8,887 bases of DNA from a virus (IMGVR_UViG_2778261251_000018:1-8887), one strand, 5' to 3'. Shown: positions 47 through 8,096, counted from the stretch's first letter. Notes: generated from the sequence alone by a model not told the origin. Program-made: numbers and translations.

Positions 47-292
47 TTACCCGAAATCTGATTTATTCAACAAAGCCATGGTGAGGTTGAGAAAGAACTC
101 TGCGGGATCAACCTGCGTATATTTCCCGTAAAAAATTCGTAGGGCTATCCACGCAGCAGACAGAATCGCCAGGTAAGCAGTTAGTGAGATAAAAAAACGA
201 TAGCGGCCTGTTTTTTGAAAAAACATCAACCGCAGTGCCAGCATCAGACAGATAATTGCATTGGCATTGATGAGGACAGAGTGCAGGGTCAT
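47..292 (-). CDS. Small two-TM membrane protein, holin-like (putative lysis-cassette gene), 81 aa
   Basis: ORF-track ORF. ATG at 292-290 shares one nt with the upstream gene's TAA stop (TAATG). AAGGGG Shine-Dalgarno ~8 nt upstream. Two hydrophobic segments (res ~6-25 and ~33-54) and a short polar tail. Second gene after the putative Q/late promoter. Holin assignment is inferred from position and topology, not from recognised sequence identity. Confidence 0.45.
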   Translation of the reverse strand: MTLHSVLINANAIICLMLALRLMFFQKTGRYRFFISLTAYLAILSAAWIALRIFYGKYTQVDPAEFFLNLTMALLNKSDFG

Positions 293-675
293 TATTTCAT
301 CCCCTTATCTGATTTCCATAAACGAGCTTGTGACATGATCCGCAACAGTGATGTAACGCTGATTACTGATGCAACCAGTGCACCAATGGCGGGAGAGACT
401 TTTACTGTTACGGGAGGGTTCAGGTGACTCAGCACCGCATTCAGAATACCGGTAATGATGGCTGATGCTGTCTCAGCGCAATACACACCGCCAACAAACG
501 AAATGAGTGCGAAAATAACCTGCTTCCAGAATCGATGCTGCCCGGATGACAACACATAGAGAGCTGCGCCTGCCAGCGCACAGATCATCACTGCAGGTGT
601 TGCCTCAGGAAATAACGCAGCAAACGTCACCCCCGCCGAGCCAGCAGCAACGCCAGCGGTTAGAGGTTCAGACAT
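292..675 (-). CDS. Multi-TM membrane protein, putative holin or lysis-associated protein, 127 aa; first gene of the late operon
   Basis: ORF-track ORF. ATG at 675-673 with AGGAAA ~7 nt upstream. Three to four hydrophobic helices followed by a basic C-terminus (RIMSQARLWKSDKGMK), typical of holins. Lies immediately downstream of the pR'/tR'-like region. Confidence 0.5.
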   Translation of the reverse strand: MSEPLTAGVAAGSAGVTFAALFPEATPAVMICALAGAALYVLSSGQHRFWKQVIFALISFVGGVYCAETASAIITGILNAVLSHLNPPVTVKVSPAIGALVASVISVTSLLRIMSQARLWKSDKGMK

Positions 676-786: not shown

Positions 787-792
787 ATTATA
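787..792 (-). promoter_or_regulatory. Consensus -10 hexamer TATAAT, putative pR'-like late promoter
   Basis: Minus strand reads cgtttgcgTATAATgcttgc, overlapping the stop codon of the putative Q gene and ~70 nt upstream of the terminator at 693-719. No good -35 found (GAACCA at 17-bp spacing). Confidence 0.3.
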
Positions 793-1459
793 CGCAAACG
801 TCGTCTAAATGGTTCTGATAATGATGCAAAGTTGCAAAAAGTGCCACTTCATCAAGTGCTCTCACCGCCTCTTTCATTCCTACCCAGTGCGGGGAGTATG
901 TTTCGCACCAGGTGGAACGAGAAACAGACAACATTCCAGCTAGCGCAGATCCGGCCATCTCCTTAAAATCCTCGCGTTTATTTGCTGCTGCGACCGCCTG
1001 CACGGACAACCACACCAACGAAAGCAGGCGCTTGACTACTTTTCTCTGAGTTGACGCAGAGATGTTTCCTTTATAGCGACTCCAGACAGCCTCACAAATA
1101 GCTGTTTGGTGTTTGAACGCCAGGTTACCACCGTAGCAATAGCGCAACCACGCCTGCTGGCTAACGTCGAGCGCGTTCACGGCACGGCGCCACGATGAAT
1201 CAGCGAATTCAAAATCATTCATCGGCGGCGCGGGGCGACGTCTGCTGAAACTTTCCAGGGCATAAACTGGCGGAACCAGAGCATCAACGGTCCGGTCCTC
1301 CAGTTGCACACGATGAATATGTTTGCGTGGGTATGCGTTTTTATCTGCTGGCGGGTGCTCACACAATGCTTCCAGTTGCCCCTTAGAACCACCAGACAAA
1401 TCCCGTAATGCAGCACGCAGTTTTATGCGGGTATATTCCAATAAATACTCGTTACTCAT
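788..1459 (-). CDS. Putative late-gene antitermination protein Q, 223 aa
   Basis: ORF-track ORF. GAGGAG Shine-Dalgarno 8 nt before the ATG. Start overlaps the stop of the upstream DUF1364 gene (TGATG). Position is canonical for lambdoid Q: last gene of the nin-type operon, directly followed by a -10/terminator pair and lysis-like genes. The assignment is positional; I did not recognise a Q zinc-finger motif by eye. Confidence 0.5.
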   Translation of the reverse strand: MSNEYLLEYTRIKLRAALRDLSGGSKGQLEALCEHPPADKNAYPRKHIHRVQLEDRTVDALVPPVYALESFSRRRPAPPMNDFEFADSSWRRAVNALDVSQQAWLRYCYGGNLAFKHQTAICEAVWSRYKGNISASTQRKVVKRLLSLVWLSVQAVAAANKREDFKEMAGSALAGMLSVSRSTWCETYSPHWVGMKEAVRALDEVALFATLHHYQNHLDDVCV

Positions 1460-1752
1460 CAGATAAACTCCTCATCGCGCCAGATAGCCAGTGTTCTGAA
1501 AACTCCTTCAGCGTGCATCAACAACAATGAGTCGTGCTCGTAATCCGTTTTTGTACGCCCGTCGATGGCATCGTGACACGCACTGCAGGCGATAGCGCCC
1601 TGCATATCGTGAGGTTTGATGGCTGTGCCGCACGTTCCGGCGAGGCGGTAGTGAGCCAGTACACTGGTTTCCGGATTGTGATTACACACACCGGGGATAC
1701 GCACAGTACAAGCGCGACCGCATGCAGCTTTTCTCAGGTCGATTTTTTTCAT
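1459..1752 (-). CDS. DUF1364 family (YbcO-like) nin-region protein, Cys/His-rich putative nuclease, 97 aa
   Basis: ORF-track ORF. Cys/His pattern (C11, C15, C23, C41, C56, C59, H60) and ~95-aa length match the DUF1364/YbcO family of lambdoid nin regions as I remember it. 4-nt ATGA overlap with the upstream gene. Confidence 0.75.
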   Translation of the reverse strand: MKKIDLRKAACGRACTVRIPGVCNHNPETSVLAHYRLAGTCGTAIKPHDMQGAIACSACHDAIDGRTKTDYEHDSLLLMHAEGVFRTLAIWRDEEFI

Positions 1753-2345
1753 GATGTGTAATCCAGCAGCTGCGCGGCAGCATTTTCAGCGGCCTCCTGA
1801 GAGGCAAACGTGCGGAACAAAATATAATTCCACAGCACATCTAAAACGGCTGAATACAGTTGACCGAACTCAAGATCGTCCATCGCAGCAAACGAGATTG
1901 AACGAGGTACGCGCATCAAACTGCCATCCGGCATCTGATGAACGTCATAAAACCCAGCTTCCATAATCGCCCAGGCGCGAAACGCCTCGAACGACTTCAC
2001 CGCACTGATATTCCCCGCGCGCTTTTCCGACTCATCGAGAAGATACTGATCAGCCAGCTCTGCCATGACATCACCGTGTCCACCGTAATACGCCAGTAAC
2101 TTAACGTAGCCATGGACCAGTTCGCGCTCCGCAGGAGAAATAGCCCCTCCGGACGGATGCCAGTAATCAAAGCCCAGGTTTAGAAGTGAGAAAAATTTAC
2201 GATGAAACGCGGGATTACGCGCCTGTTTGAAATCTGCATACACAACAGCATCTGGTTTGACTCGTTCAGTCAACCAGCGTTGCGTGTCTGGTGTCGCGGG
2301 TATTAGCGAACCGCCGGATACCCTGATAAATGAATGCTGCGCCAT
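1749..2345 (-). CDS. nin-region phage protein, DUF1367-like, 198 aa
   Basis: ORF-track ORF. GGAG Shine-Dalgarno 8 nt upstream of the ATG at 2345. Translationally coupled to the DUF1364 gene. The DUF1367 label comes from remembered co-occurrence with DUF1364 in enterobacterial prophages and needs an HMM check. Confidence 0.6.
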   Translation of the reverse strand: MAQHSFIRVSGGSLIPATPDTQRWLTERVKPDAVVYADFKQARNPAFHRKFFSLLNLGFDYWHPSGGAISPAERELVHGYVKLLAYYGGHGDVMAELADQYLLDESEKRAGNISAVKSFEAFRAWAIMEAGFYDVHQMPDGSLMRVPRSISFAAMDDLEFGQLYSAVLDVLWNYILFRTFASQEAAENAAAQLLDYTS

Positions 2346-4036: not shown

Positions 4037-4717
4037 CTATTCGGCACTTGTGTTAGGTTGCTGAGCGTTCTCGTTTTTGTCTTTATTAAATTGAATGTTT
4101 GGCTGTTGGAATAACGATCCCTGCAGATTTTTAAACGCTCCATCCACAATGTCGTCTCTGGATTTTTGTGGCAATGCCCAAGTACAAATACCATAGACAA
4201 TGACAGCGAAGGTTATTGTGGCGAAAATGCTGGCAAACCCATTCCAGTACCATCCTAACGAGCGGGAAACACGCCCACGTTTGCGTGCCTGGGTGATTTC
4301 AACCATGCGATGAAAATTGAGAATAGCATCCTCTCCAGCCTTCCTTAGCTCGCTCTCACGTGATGCTTTCATAGCCTGTATTTCTGCTTTCAGCCGTTCT
4401 ATTTCAACATCCTGCAAGTTAGCACCGGCTAACTGTGCATCGTACTCAAGCCGGATATCAGCATCTATCTGGTCTGTTAAGTTTGTGACGATGGCTTCTG
4501 CTTTTTCTTTGTAAGACTCAATTCGGCCTGGCGAGTTAACTGTCTGCTCATGAAAGATCTTCAGTTGGGCGTTAATATCTTCTTCTGTATATTCGCCACT
4601 ACTACGCAACTTCTCTGCATATTCATTTTTGTCGTGCTTATAGAGCGCGTAAGCCAAAAAGCCAGATGTGTCATCTTTCCCTGTAACTAATTGAGTAAAA
4701 ACCCAGAGCTTTTCCAT
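4037..4717 (-). CDS. Coiled-coil protein with a single C-terminal transmembrane helix, 226 aa; candidate membrane-anchored exclusion or abortive-infection effector
   Basis: ORF-track ORF 4037..4765, trimmed to the ATG at 4717 (MEKLWVFTQL...). The upstream 16 codons start at TTG and run through the terminator hairpin. Predicted helical heptad-like region (res ~75-130), hydrophobic stretch LGWYWNGFASIFATITFAVIVYGICTWAL (res ~155-182), Q/N-rich tail. No family recognised. Confidence 0.7.
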   Translation of the reverse strand: MEKLWVFTQLVTGKDDTSGFLAYALYKHDKNEYAEKLRSSGEYTEEDINAQLKIFHEQTVNSPGRIESYKEKAEAIVTNLTDQIDADIRLEYDAQLAGANLQDVEIERLKAEIQAMKASRESELRKAGEDAILNFHRMVEITQARKRGRVSRSLGWYWNGFASIFATITFAVIVYGICTWALPQKSRDDIVDGAFKNLQGSLFQQPNIQFNKDKNENAQQPNTSAE

Positions 4718-4730
4718 TTGGTTTTTCCGC

Positions 4731-4758
4731 AATAAAAAAGCGCCAGAAAAAGGCGCTT
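4731..4758 (-). terminator. Strong rho-independent terminator between the 64-aa gene and the 226-aa gene
   Basis: Minus-strand RNA AAGCGCC-UUUUUCU-GGCGCUU followed by UUUUAUU. 7-bp stem (4738-4744 with 4752-4758), 7-nt loop. Begins ~19 nt after the stop of the 64-aa gene and ends 14 nt before the ATG of the 226-aa gene. Confidence 0.7.
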
Positions 4759-4776
4759 TAATCAATTAAAGTAAAA

Positions 4777-4971
4777 TTATCCTTTGGCTACAACTGTCCT
4801 GAATGCACGATCCATCATTACTCGCGCAGTATCTCGTGATCTCTGTATTGAAGCAGAGCCAGAGGACATTGAAGCAGTAGGCTTAGCAGGGGCTCTATTT
4901 TGTGCTAATGCACTGCGAGCAATGTCAGCCTTACGGCTATCTGACAGTGGTCGAAGTTCATATTTAGCCAT
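4777..4971 (-). CDS. Small basic Ser/Ala/Arg-rich hypothetical protein, 64 aa
   Basis: ORF-track ORF. Near-ideal GGAGGA Shine-Dalgarno ending 4 nt before the ATG (GGAGGATAAATG). Canonical terminator just downstream. Preferred over the antisense ORF 4784..5152, which starts at TTG. Confidence 0.6.
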   Translation of the reverse strand: MAKYELRPLSDSRKADIARSALAQNRAPAKPTASMSSGSASIQRSRDTARVMMDRAFRTVVAKG

Positions 4972-5034: not shown

Positions 5035-5329
5035 TTTACCACAGACACCGTTAAATGCCATGTGCAGAATTGTCAAGCACTTAAACGACGAAAATCACTA
5101 TATGCAGGTTATTTTATTTCAGCTACCACTAGATGTAGTAAGTAGTCGCTAAAAATAAATAATGTTTGATAATGAAGTCGGTTTAAGAGCAGCTGGTCTG
5201 CGTTAGATGCAGGTACTCAGCTGGCTGCTTGCGCAGGATCGCCTCTGCGATAACAGGCATGCTCAGGCATTCTTTGCAAGCCACATCTGGATACCCCTTA
5301 TCAGACGATACGTAATATCCATCCAGCAT

Positions 5330-5878
5330 TCAAGGGTGCCACATACTCCCGCGAGTAAGAGTCAAACAGGATAGTAGTACATTGCTGGCATGTGAAAAAT
5401 TAGCTTCCTGGTCTTCGAGGTTGTAAGACCATTTTTCTCCATGGAAAAGATTATGCCGTAACCTAAAAATCACTTTGAACACAAAGCTGATTTTATCTTC
5501 AATTGTTGGAGACTGTATCTGAAGTAGCGTAACAAAGCGTTCTCTGATTGCATTCTTAACATACTCAGGCGGGGCCAGTTTATTGAAGCGGTAATCGCTA
5601 TCAGGGCTGTCTCGATAGCGTCGTATAAAATAACGATAGCAATCATCTATGGTCTGACTGTCCATGCCGTTATGCACAACCAGTTCCTGTGCCAGTGCGT
5701 CAGTTCTACCAAGGCCAGCAGCCATTGATGTTAACTTTGATTCAGCCAGGGAAAAATAAATCATAAAGCGACATAAGTTATCATATTGATTCTGATGAAA
5801 TGGTTGTGCTTGTAACAGATCTGCCAATTCGGCGACTACTGGGCGTGGGGCGTCTTCTACGATACTCACTTCCGACAT
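5330..5878 (-). CDS. Hypothetical protein with a C-terminal R-x4-H motif (HEPN-like, putative RNase), 182 aa
   Basis: ORF-track ORF. AAGGGAG Shine-Dalgarno ~6 nt upstream. Motif FRLRHNLFHGEKW (res ~139-151) contains R-H-N-L-F-H, matching the HEPN R-x(4-6)-H signature with a polar residue after the Arg. The fold is not verified. Confidence 0.6.
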   Translation of the reverse strand: MSEVSIVEDAPRPVVAELADLLQAQPFHQNQYDNLCRFMIYFSLAESKLTSMAAGLGRTDALAQELVVHNGMDSQTIDDCYRYFIRRYRDSPDSDYRFNKLAPPEYVKNAIRERFVTLLQIQSPTIEDKISFVFKVIFRLRHNLFHGEKWSYNLEDQEANFSHASNVLLSCLTLTRGSMWHP

Positions 5879-6357
5879 AAAAACTCCCTTATGTTATGGA
5901 GAGGGTGAAAATAACTGTATCTGTCAGGAGATTCTTTCTCGGTTGGTCATTGAGCGCGCTCCTATAAAGCATATGTTATACCCAATATTACAAAAACCAG
6001 GTACATATGCTTGTTCTATTTAACCTGCGTCCTCTGCAAGATAATGCGACACTATCAGCAAACGTTACTGTTGTACATGAGCGGTACTTAAACTGAGGTA
6101 TTCGGCCTCGTGTTGGTCGTGACCAAATACCTTTTTAAACGCAAGTAACTCTCTCTATGAAACAGACTTTAGTCGATTTTCGAACACCTTAGTCGCAGGG
6201 TCTTGATAAATTAACAATGTATTGAAAACATATAATTATCCCATCAACTCCAACGTAATACATCACAAAAAAATCTATTTTTTGTTCTAACGTCAATACG
6301 TGTTCTAAAAACAATATTTCACTAAGAATGAGAGGATTCAGAGTACATTAAAATGAT

Positions 6358-6388
6358 GGGTTGTTTATTCAATTCTTATAAACAACCC
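6358..6388 (-). terminator. Hairpin terminator after the DUF262 gene
   Basis: Perfect inverted repeat GGGTTGTTTAT-(9 nt)-ATAAACAACCC, starting 12 nt past the stop at 6400 and followed on the minus strand by AUCAUUUUAAU. Confidence 0.5.
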
Positions 6389-6399
6389 ACTTTCGTCAT

Positions 6400-7458
6400 T
6401 TAATCATGTAAAGAGCAAAATTCTTTCAAAATATCAAATCTACGCTGTCTGTTATGACTCTTCTTTGAACCCTCTTGGCTGAGGAATCTATATTCCTCAA
6501 CCAGTGGATGGGGGTTATCTTGTTCATTTAACTCATAAATATTAAAAAAATCCTCGAGCTTTGAACTAATAACATTCATATCAACAAGCTTAGATTTACT
6601 AAGCTGTAAATAATAGTATGCCAGCACAAATATAAAATACAAATGGCCTTTTTTCTTTACAACTGATTCTAATACTTGTTTATTGTTGATAATTTGAGAT
6701 ATGATCCTTAACACTTCGTTAAAGATAATTCTGTCCTCAGTCGCCTCAGGGTAATTCTCATTGTATTGATCATACACTCGATTAATTGATTTTTGTGTAT
6801 TATCCTGCTCAATACCCATTCGTAAGAAAATCAATAATGTGCTGATGAATTGAATGTCTTGCATCCGACGGATATCTGACTGAGTAAATATCTTATAATT
6901 ATCCCAAAATTCATTTTGTGCAATTTCTTCGGCTAATCTTAAAAACTCGCCATTAAATTCAGCATTACGAAGTTCTTGAGGATTTAACGTAGTATTTGTT
7001 CTATTTAGACGTAAAAATAACTTTGCAATCTCATCATATCTCAATGATTCATTAATAAATCTGGATGAGAATTGGTATCGCCAAAAATCACGTTTGTTAT
7101 CTGCCGACAATTCTGAAAAAATTTTCCCACTATAGTCGGCTTCTTTATCATCTATAGCTGCTTTGCTTAACTTAAACTCATCATTTAAATATCGCTGGAT
7201 TGTGGTTAGCCTTTGCTGTCCATCTACAATTGAATATTTAGTATCTCCAGTGTCAGGATCAGTATTATTTGCCCAAAGGTAAATCTCAGGGATTGGGTAG
7301 CCAATTAATATTGTCTCAATTAAGGCCACTTGGTCTTTTTGCTGCCAGATATATTTTCTCTGATATGAATTATCAACTGTAATAACACCTGATTTCAAAT
7401 TATCCGTCAACCATTTAATGTCTTTCGATTCAACTTTAATTAGATCAATAGCTCTCAT
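6400..7458 (-). CDS. DUF262 (ParB/Srx-fold, GmrS-like N-terminal NTPase domain) protein, 352 aa, without a recognisable DUF1524/HNH nuclease module
   Basis: ORF-track ORF. DUF262 hallmark motifs read directly: YQRKYIW (res 32-38) and DGQQR (res 79-83, nt 7210-7224). AGGA Shine-Dalgarno 9 nt upstream. ATG overlaps the NTase stop (ATGA). The C-terminal ~200 aa is low-complexity K/N/Y-rich, with no His-Me finger seen by eye. Confidence 0.85.
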   Translation of the reverse strand: MRAIDLIKVESKDIKWLTDNLKSGVITVDNSYQRKYIWQQKDQVALIETILIGYPIPEIYLWANNTDPDTGDTKYSIVDGQQRLTTIQRYLNDEFKLSKAAIDDKEADYSGKIFSELSADNKRDFWRYQFSSRFINESLRYDEIAKLFLRLNRTNTTLNPQELRNAEFNGEFLRLAEEIAQNEFWDNYKIFTQSDIRRMQDIQFISTLLIFLRMGIEQDNTQKSINRVYDQYNENYPEATEDRIIFNEVLRIISQIINNKQVLESVVKKKGHLYFIFVLAYYYLQLSKSKLVDMNVISSKLEDFFNIYELNEQDNPHPLVEEYRFLSQEGSKKSHNRQRRFDILKEFCSLHD

Positions 7459-8045
7459 ATCAATTGTCCTTGTAACTTATCTTTTAGACTATTCAACCCA
7501 GCTATGTGATAGCGTTCAACGGACTCCCAAGAGTCATAAATTCTGTAGTTGATGTCGTTAGGTATTCCAAAAATAGTTTGAATGTCTTTTTTTAATGGTT
7601 CAACGTTACGGGACCATTTATTAAAAAAATCGACTCTAATATCTAACTCCTTCAATGACACGAATCCTTTGAAAATATTTTTAGCTACAGGAGCATATAC
7701 AGGCAAATAATTCTTTGATTGTAATTCAATAAATGCCATCCAGGAAGATTTATAAATTCTGTCGGATACTAAAACCAAGTCTATATCTGACTCATCGTTA
7801 AATGTTCGATAATTTTTATCAGGGCTCAAGCTGAATCCCATCTTAGCACTTCCAACAATTGCAATATTATTTACATGAATTTCAAGCTTCTTAGACATAT
7901 ATAGCTTAAACTCATCATAATCTTTAGCAAAGGTTATTGATTTTTTTTGTTCCCGAAAATACCAAATGTCATGTCCTAAAAGGTATCGTTGGTAGACATC
8001 GCGGATATCGTCGGATAGTAGCTTTTCCTTAAATTCATTTAACAT
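7455..8045 (-). CDS. Minimal nucleotidyltransferase (Pol-beta superfamily, MNT/SMODS-like), ~196 aa
   Basis: ORF-track ORF 7455..8069 starts at TTG; the first ATG is at 8045 (MLNEFKEKLL...). Neither start has a strong ribosome-binding site. NTase signature read directly: IVGSAKMG (GS motif, nt ~7848-7856), then NDESDIDLVLV (acidic D-x-D pair, nt 7779-7787), then LDIRVD as a likely third acidic residue. Confidence 0.8.
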   Translation of the reverse strand: MLNEFKEKLLSDDIRDVYQRYLLGHDIWYFREQKKSITFAKDYDEFKLYMSKKLEIHVNNIAIVGSAKMGFSLSPDKNYRTFNDESDIDLVLVSDRIYKSSWMAFIELQSKNYLPVYAPVAKNIFKGFVSLKELDIRVDFFNKWSRNVEPLKKDIQTIFGIPNDINYRIYDSWESVERYHIAGLNSLKDKLQGQLI

Positions 8046-8096
8046 TTTCTTGTGCGCCCCTATTGACAAGAACTGTAGATTAGCTGTTACATTTCC

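Follow-up and report, generated by a model that had tools for sequence, protein, structure and literature searches.

Gene order and transcription signals in the prophage

The DNA analysed here, called the window, is a viral stretch of 8,887 nucleotides (IMGVR_UViG_2778261251_000018:1-8887) which shares 99.9% identity with a lambdoid prophage from Escherichia coli ETEC1738. A late-regulation and lysis module on the minus strand, consisting of two holin genes (47..292 and 292..675), the gene for the antiterminator Q (788..1459), a YbcO/DUF1364 gene (1459..1752) and a DUF1367 gene (1749..2345), confirms the lambdoid prophage setting. In the ETEC1738 prophage, cI/cro-like regulators are followed by YdaT, a replication protein, a DnaB-type helicase, small genes and an IS3 element; after this come a nucleotidyltransferase-like (NTase-like) and a DUF262 gene, the gene which is the subject of this analysis, and the genes for a 226-aa protein, DUF1367, YbcO (DUF1364), Q, holins and terminase. 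The slot occupied by the gene of interest is the one between the replication genes, ending with the replicative helicase, and DUF1367/YbcO/Q. An IS3-family transposase gene (L001, 16920..18133) adjoins the NTase-DUF262 block in ETEC1738, and in two pig isolates (the H2 and H3 records) the region matching the window is broken by an IS3 element and an LprI-family gene.

The gene itself occupies 5330..5878 (-), starts with ATG and encodes a HEPN-like protein of 182 aa. The product is RefSeq WP_064226193.1 of E. coli ETEC1738, annotated as a “hypothetical protein”, and a 100% identical gene is annotated in NZ_CP122768.1. All ten close homologues from E. coli, Klebsiella and Enterobacter (59-96% identity) are exactly 182 aa long and share the invariant segment FRLRHNLFHGEKWS, and the nucleotide changes relative to homologues of 62-69% identity fall mostly in the third codon position (e.g. 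40/37/105 by codon position). As homologues of equal length exist and the substitutions show this third-position bias, the open reading frame, which is also in the ORF list, is a real gene. It has a Shine-Dalgarno sequence of its own (AGGGAG, 5884..5889 (-)) 5 nt before the ATG, so that the first-pass annotation was right to describe a stand-alone gene with its own ribosome-binding site.

Upstream of the gene lies a non-coding stretch (5879..6089 (-)) which is the presumed location of its promoter and travels with the gene in other prophages; a promoter scan of this stretch called no consensus sigma-70 promoter, and its promoter function is put forward here as a presumption. Homology with EC28-type prophages that have no NTase-DUF262 block reaches window position 6089, and homology with the JNE151685 prophage reaches 6296. 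As this homology between prophages stops 211-418 bp upstream of the ATG, the gene travels together with its own upstream region. No promoter was detected. Its orientation is that of the early-right operon, so that it could be a gene of the lytic cycle and not one expressed in the lysogen.

At the other end, an intrinsic terminator was found at 4737..4759 (-) by a terminator scan (8-bp GC-rich stem followed by a T-run, folding energy -13.1 kcal/mol). No strong terminator precedes it on the downstream side of the gene, whose transcription unit probably ends here. Two small ORFs lie in between. A 48-aa ORF (5183..5329 (-)) begins directly after the stop codon of the gene (TGA-ATG) and is a remnant of a phage gene for DNA polymerase III theta (holE-like, phrog_1105); in other lambdoid prophages the intact 85-aa holE-like gene is found immediately upstream of the family member instead of downstream. 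Between a strong Shine-Dalgarno sequence (GGAGG) and the strong terminator lies a basic, unannotated ORF of 64 aa (4777..4971 (-)), which may share a transcript with the gene. It has no PHROG match, and its conservation is limited to the four closely related prophages that were examined.

On the upstream side, the nearest neighbours are a DUF262/GmrSD_N gene of 352 aa (6400..7458 (-), Pfam E-value 1e-24) and an NTase-like gene from the ORF list of 204 aa (7455..8069 (-)), which overlap in an ATGA at 7455-7458. The gene of interest is on the same strand, 521 bp downstream of the DUF262 gene, in agreement with the gap of about 520 bp given in the first-pass annotation, and 1.6 kb away from the NTase-like gene. 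After the DUF262 stop codon, a hairpin (6356..6390 (-), 13-bp stem, -16 kcal/mol, z = -2.9 compared with shuffled sequences) forms a terminator-like boundary between the NTase-DUF262 operon and the gene. An intervening terminator had been proposed at this place; the terminator scan did not call the hairpin, because its U-tail is weak. The base composition also changes, with a GC content of 30-34% for the NTase-DUF262 block and 41-45% for the gene. Between the two, the stretch at about 6066..6333 shares ~80% identity with a section of a “hypothetical protein” gene from about 400 E. coli genomes. Within it is a 41-aa ORF (6189..6314 (-)) which is probably a remnant of the small prophage gene for WP_033814620.1 marking the junction of the NTase-DUF262 insertion, as the equivalent region of JNE151685 holds the 3' end of this gene.

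The protein family and its R-x4-H motif

The segment FRLRHNLFHGEKW comprises residues 138-150 of the protein and includes RHNLFH (residues 141-146). The codons of R141-H142-N143-L144-F145-H146 (5441..5458 (-)) mark the predicted catalytic site, an assignment that draws on the sequence read, conservation and an AF2 model. HEPN proteins are defined by a conserved Rx4-6H motif in which a polar residue, mostly N, D or H, comes right after the arginine (PMC3710099). Both features are seen in the family described here. Taken alone, however, the Rx4H motif is not above chance: among 20,000 shuffles of the protein, Rx4-6H occurs in 74%, Rx4H in 36% and R[NDH]x3H in 5.8%. The significance of the motif comes from its conservation and not from its mere presence. 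The consensus R-[N/H/C]-N-L-F-H-G is found at the homologous site in 159 of 159 relatives among the matches listed, with N or H following the arginine in 156 of these and C in three; H142 is the variant of the clade to which the protein belongs. In an alignment of 139 sequences with a mean column identity of 23%, R87, R141, H146 and K149 are the only four invariant columns, and a further nine positions (F38, E46, Y88, L101, R139, N143, G147, Q157 and N160) are conserved to at least 90%. The R-x4-H reading of RHNLFH in the C-terminal part of the protein, first made from this one sequence, is thereby extended to the whole family alignment.

When 1.84 billion representative proteins were searched by profile, the result was at least 561 relatives at E-values up to 1e-3, counted as clusters at 50% identity, nearly all of them single-domain proteins of 160-180 aa. 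Outside phages, relatives are encoded in 297 stretches of about 186,000 species-representative genomes, mainly from alpha-, beta- and gamma-proteobacteria, and nine Rhizobiales plasmids carry the family as well; 69 family loci are in viral contigs. Four of its clades are absent from 50,697 sequenced phage isolate genomes searched with tblastn, a point against the effector reading given below. In the source annotations these proteins are named “hypothetical protein”. No match was found in Pfam or NCBIfam for the protein, the consensus of the family or the 139 members scanned, in PADLOC for the protein or the consensus, or among PDB sequences for the protein, the family profile (E-values up to 10) or a distant member, P0081. 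The only PHROG of the family is phrog_27260 (PHROGs v4, function unknown). It is matched by the protein with an E-value of 1.2e-9, end to end by a lambdoid-prophage clade of 160-aa members (1.8e-93), and by other clades with E-values of 1e-6 to 2e-11; by these profile matches, phrog_27260 is the same family. In the literature searched, neither the accessions of the proteins nor the motif nor the PHROG identifier turned up.

The HEPN fold is a four-helix up-down bundle with frequent inserts between helices 2 and 3, in which the motif closes core helix 3 and leads into the loop before helix 4; often, another conserved acidic residue, typically within E-x3-[KR], precedes Rx4H in the sequence and is spatially near it (PMC3710099). 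The AF2 model built from the 139-sequence alignment (pLDDT 90.5, pTM 0.87) is all-helical, with long helices at residues 29-48, 74-90, 126-145 and 158-175 and shorter helices between them. In this model the motif (141-146) sits where helix 126-145 ends, and a 12-residue loop (146-157) connects it to the last helix (158-175), so that the predicted position of the motif is the one expected of a HEPN protein. The conserved acidic residue E46 (at least 90%) is at the end of helix 29-48, in the context E-x-K rather than the usual E-x3-[KR]. Judging by the alternating direction of the modelled helices, E46, R87/Y88, R141-H146, K149, Q157 and N160 should all share one pole of the bundle.

Similarity searches give a less clear picture. 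Foldseek, which had been suggested as a check for the HEPN fold, found nothing significant in the PDB (best E-value 0.95), and the matches of the fold searches to HEPN structures are weak and non-discriminating. Comparison of the family by hhalign with a single HEPN_LA2681 protein was negative, and with a purpose-built alignment of 58 LA2681 proteins the probability was 0.1% and the motifs were not aligned. No profile-level similarity to an established HEPN family was therefore seen with Pfam, NCBIfam or the HEPN_LA2681 alignment. This weakens the HEPN claim without excluding it, since the divergence between HEPN families is often of this degree. Individual distant members do show weak matches in PADLOC: P0081 matches positions 318-428 of 476 in the CARF_HEPN model, the C-terminal and presumed HEPN part (E-value 1.2e-4), another member matches Csx1/Csm6 (6e-3), and four of the 139 match DzbB (best E-value 6e-5), with P0081 placed on DzbB positions 249-320 of 341, in the C-terminal part of that model. 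The latter hints that DzbB, the second protein of the Dazbog system, may hold a related, possibly HEPN-like domain. On balance, we consider it probable that the 182-aa protein belongs to the HEPN superfamily.

Genomic neighbours and the search for a partner

Among 5,426 complete E. coli genomes, the gene is present in eight, chromosomal every time, and the NTase-DUF262 block in three. Five of the eight genomes with the gene lack the pair; three of these five were checked directly or by the extent of homology. In JNE151685, the copy of the gene (99.5% nucleotide identity) comes directly after a small prophage gene, and in EC28 (97.1%) a different set of genes precedes it, for a 450-aa protein, a SMEK-domain protein and a methyltransferase. 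The NTase-DUF262 pair is absent from both strains. Homologues of the same clade in Klebsiella (62%) and E. coli (69%) occupy the same slot, from the replication genes to DUF1367/YbcO/antiterminator or RusA/Q. Of 167 family loci searched with jackhmmer, none but the prophage of the window itself has DUF262 and NTase homologues nearby. The gene does not depend on its neighbours.

The search for other partners was extended to the family as a whole. Clustering of the neighbours from 79 diverse genomes gave no cluster that was present in more than five loci, and the ORFs tightly linked to family genes on either side show local synteny only, with no conserved partner. A Pfam census of 143 flanking proteins was heterogeneous, the most frequent entries being phage integrase (4), the CAP12/Pycsar TIR effector domain (3), and N6 methylase/HsdM, HipA and Eco57I methylase (2 each). 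An 85-aa gene found upstream of members from other clades was considered as a partner and rejected; this holE-like gene belongs to the phage backbone and is present in 37 phages without the family. Scans with Rfam and for tandem and inverted repeats found nothing near the gene that would resemble an RNA antitoxin.

Some associations are confined to single lineages. In Bradyrhizobium, where the family locus is a conserved chromosomal site between UDG and thiC, a 72-aa HTH_73 gene is found 43 bp upstream of the family member (L004, L006 and L007; 5740..5958). This neighbour is restricted to Bradyrhizobium and could be a lineage-specific regulator or antitoxin. In some distant members, there is a 4-bp overlap between the family gene and the next gene downstream. 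In Kiloniella antarctica (L020, 1641..6037) the overlapping gene encodes a 178-aa DUF2130 protein, and a 510-aa protein with TPR and HEPN_LA2681 domains is encoded 1.8 kb upstream; in three metagenomic loci (L017-L019, 5001..6742) the overlapping gene encodes a 412-aa protein with no Pfam match. These two downstream proteins are unrelated to each other.

HepT is a member of DUF86 with an RX4HXY motif, the tyrosine of which is AMPylated. The possibility that the gene product is a toxin of the HepT kind which the minimal nucleotidyltransferase nearby would neutralise, in a type VII HEPN/MNT pair, was raised by the first-pass annotation as a functional link to the upstream NTase. The 204-aa protein does have a minimal-NTase-like motif (GSAKMG...SDIDLVLV) and matches phrog_32008 (function unknown), with no match in Pfam or PADLOC. 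However, its gene overlaps and is coupled to the DUF262 gene and not to the gene in question, copies of the latter with 97-99.5% identity stand without the pair, and all other family loci among the 167 lack it. Furthermore, H146 is followed by G-E, with no tyrosine two residues past the histidine, and neither DUF86 nor a HEPN entry of Pfam is matched. The same differences separate the protein from the HepT/MntA systems and from the MNT-associated HEPN proteins HI0074, TTHA0636 and AF0298: the family at large has no adjacent MNT, and the H-x-Y motif and the DUF86/HEPN Pfam match are missing. The protein is also about 40-60 residues longer than HepT-type and MNT-associated HEPN proteins, with extra helices between the core helices, and a regular-expression search of the family loci examined found no HepT/MNT pairs. 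By comparative genomics such a pairing is largely refuted, and we regard it as highly improbable.

A link to the DUF262 gene would take a different form. DUF262 proteins of the ParB/GmrSD_N type could sense modified DNA and control a second, toxic protein, which in this case would be the 182-aa protein, in the manner of Dazbog or PD-T4-2. Dazbog, reported as an abortive infection system, has DUF262 in its first gene, and PD-T4-2 is placed under both DUF262 and the HEPN domain in the domain table of a review. In the window, the DUF262 gene is upstream on the same strand, its product matches NsnA (4e-41) and PD-T4-2_A (2.5e-19) in PADLOC, and the weak DzbB matches of the four distant members point in the same direction. 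Against this, the 182-aa protein itself has no DzbB match, the window DUF262 protein matches neither DzbA nor DzbB in PADLOC, and the two genes do not form an operon but are separated by the 521-bp gap, the hairpin and the shift in GC content, while DUF262 is translationally coupled to the NTase-like gene. As the adjacency is unique to this prophage among the 167 loci and near-identical copies of the gene stand without DUF262, a role as DUF262 effector seems quite improbable, though it deserves to be borne in mind. The NTase-DUF262 pair, next to which NsnB and NsnC were not found, is rather a candidate for a two-gene defence module of its own.

Only slightly better placed, and still improbable, is the proposal that the protein is the toxin of a cryptic toxin-antitoxin pair whose antitoxin is either an RNA or a small product of the same transcription unit, such as that of the 64-aa ORF. 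The GGAGG preceding this ORF, its position before the first strong terminator and its retention in four related prophages would fit an antitoxin, as would the HTH_73 gene in Bradyrhizobium and the overlapping downstream gene in some members. Yet the 64-aa ORF is found only in closely related prophages and the HTH_73 gene only in Bradyrhizobium, and the overlapping genes are mutually unrelated. For an RNA antitoxin, there is neither an Rfam match nor a repeat array like those of type III antitoxins. In addition, a solo HEPN protein need not have an antitoxin at all, as HepS is intrinsically inactive without one.

A putative single-gene abortive-infection effector

The closest functional counterpart is HepS from the Salmonella prophage Gifsy-1 (PDB 9OIJ/9OIK), reported in 2026 as a solo HEPN abortive-infection protein (PMC13043305). 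HepS is constitutively expressed and non-toxic until its tetramer is opened by the tail-tip protein J of siphoviruses, upon which it cuts tRNA anticodon loops (PMC13043305). Both HepS and the protein described here are single small proteins with a motif of the R-N-x3-H type and no conserved partner gene, and the genes of both belong to the accessory region that follows the replication genes in a lambdoid prophage. By analogy, HepS is the best functional model; the likeness is one of function only, and no homology to HepS (PDB 9OIJ) was detected. In the Gifsy-1 record of strain LT2, no ORF with R100 and H105 of HepS was found, and STM2620 was rejected as HepS, since it is a DUF1367 protein without a PDB match.

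Other HEPN effectors fit the same general pattern. Tha of Staphylococcus aureus prophages, ApeA, AbiV and AbiD/F-type proteins are HEPN effectors of abortive infection carried by prophages or mobile elements. They differ from the present family in that their PADLOC models match neither the protein nor the family consensus. The family is a new and unannotated one, the kind of protein and its genomic place are already known, and the behaviour to be expected would resemble that of HepS, Tha and ApeA.

Taken together, the 182-aa protein may best be explained as a stand-alone, all-helical member of this family which is a HEPN-type RNase and acts as a single-gene effector of abortive infection or exclusion. 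We give this reading a probability of roughly 55%. The first-pass annotation had offered an independent, Abi-type HEPN effector as one of its two options; of this, the solitary prophage accessory gene and the invariant motif stand, the HEPN assignment is likely, and the defensive function would follow from the analogies above. In such a model, the active site would be formed by R141 and H146, aided by N or H at position 142, N143, K149, R87 and E46, at one pole of the helical bundle, and a homodimer would probably complete it, as it does in HEPN enzymes elsewhere. The chemistry would be that of a metal-independent RNase, as in the HEPN superfamily. The gene, which brings along its ribosome-binding site and upstream region and has a hairpin on either side, is carried as autonomous prophage cargo. 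The protein, if expressed in the lysogen, would be inactive there until a component of a superinfecting phage acts as the trigger, and the activated protein would then cleave cellular RNA, either tRNA or mRNA, thereby stopping phage growth and aborting the infection.

The main competitor of the RNase model is a helical protein in which the conserved cluster of arginine, histidine and lysine residues binds a ligand, a nucleic acid or a partner protein. Such a protein would not be an RNase, and its likeness to HEPN would be convergent or superficial; examples would be phage proteins from the early operon that serve in taking over the host, in anti-defence or in regulation. The weak evidence for the HEPN fold speaks in its favour. 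We consider a non-nuclease role unlikely, although clearly less so than any of the partner-dependent explanations.

A further step is to extend the single-gene RNase model from the one protein to all of its relatives, which would make them a widespread, unrecognised family of solo HEPN-type nucleases, each acting as a single-gene abortive-infection system. This generalisation is tentative and falls somewhat short of even odds. If true, a new and fairly widespread family would be added to the solo HEPN defence proteins, of which HepS is the characterised example from a prophage. The family is invisible to present annotation and defence finders, as Pfam, NCBIfam and PADLOC miss both the protein and the consensus and only single distant members match PADLOC weakly. 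Being small and self-contained, the protein is easy to test.

At least four clades of the family, about 25-30% identical to one another, are found between the replication genes and the nin/Q genes of enterobacterial lambdoid prophages. Three of these, seen among the loci in viral contigs and including phrog_27260, are about 25-33% identical to the 182-aa protein and are located between the holE-like gene for DNA polymerase III theta and ninB. By analogy with the tail-tip sensing of HepS, the diversity of clades in this slot suggests a swapping of cassettes which diversifies the phage that is sensed. The slot from the replication genes to ninB/Q with its divergent clades would therefore be a place to study how a phage is recognised while the cell's own prophage is spared. 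In the window, the same accessory region also holds a 242-aa ORF (4037..4765 (-), 226 aa in the RefSeq annotation) which matches phrog_25194 (function unknown). By eye its product is rich in coiled coils and has a hydrophobic, probably membrane-spanning stretch near residues 176-205, and it might be a membrane-associated exclusion protein.
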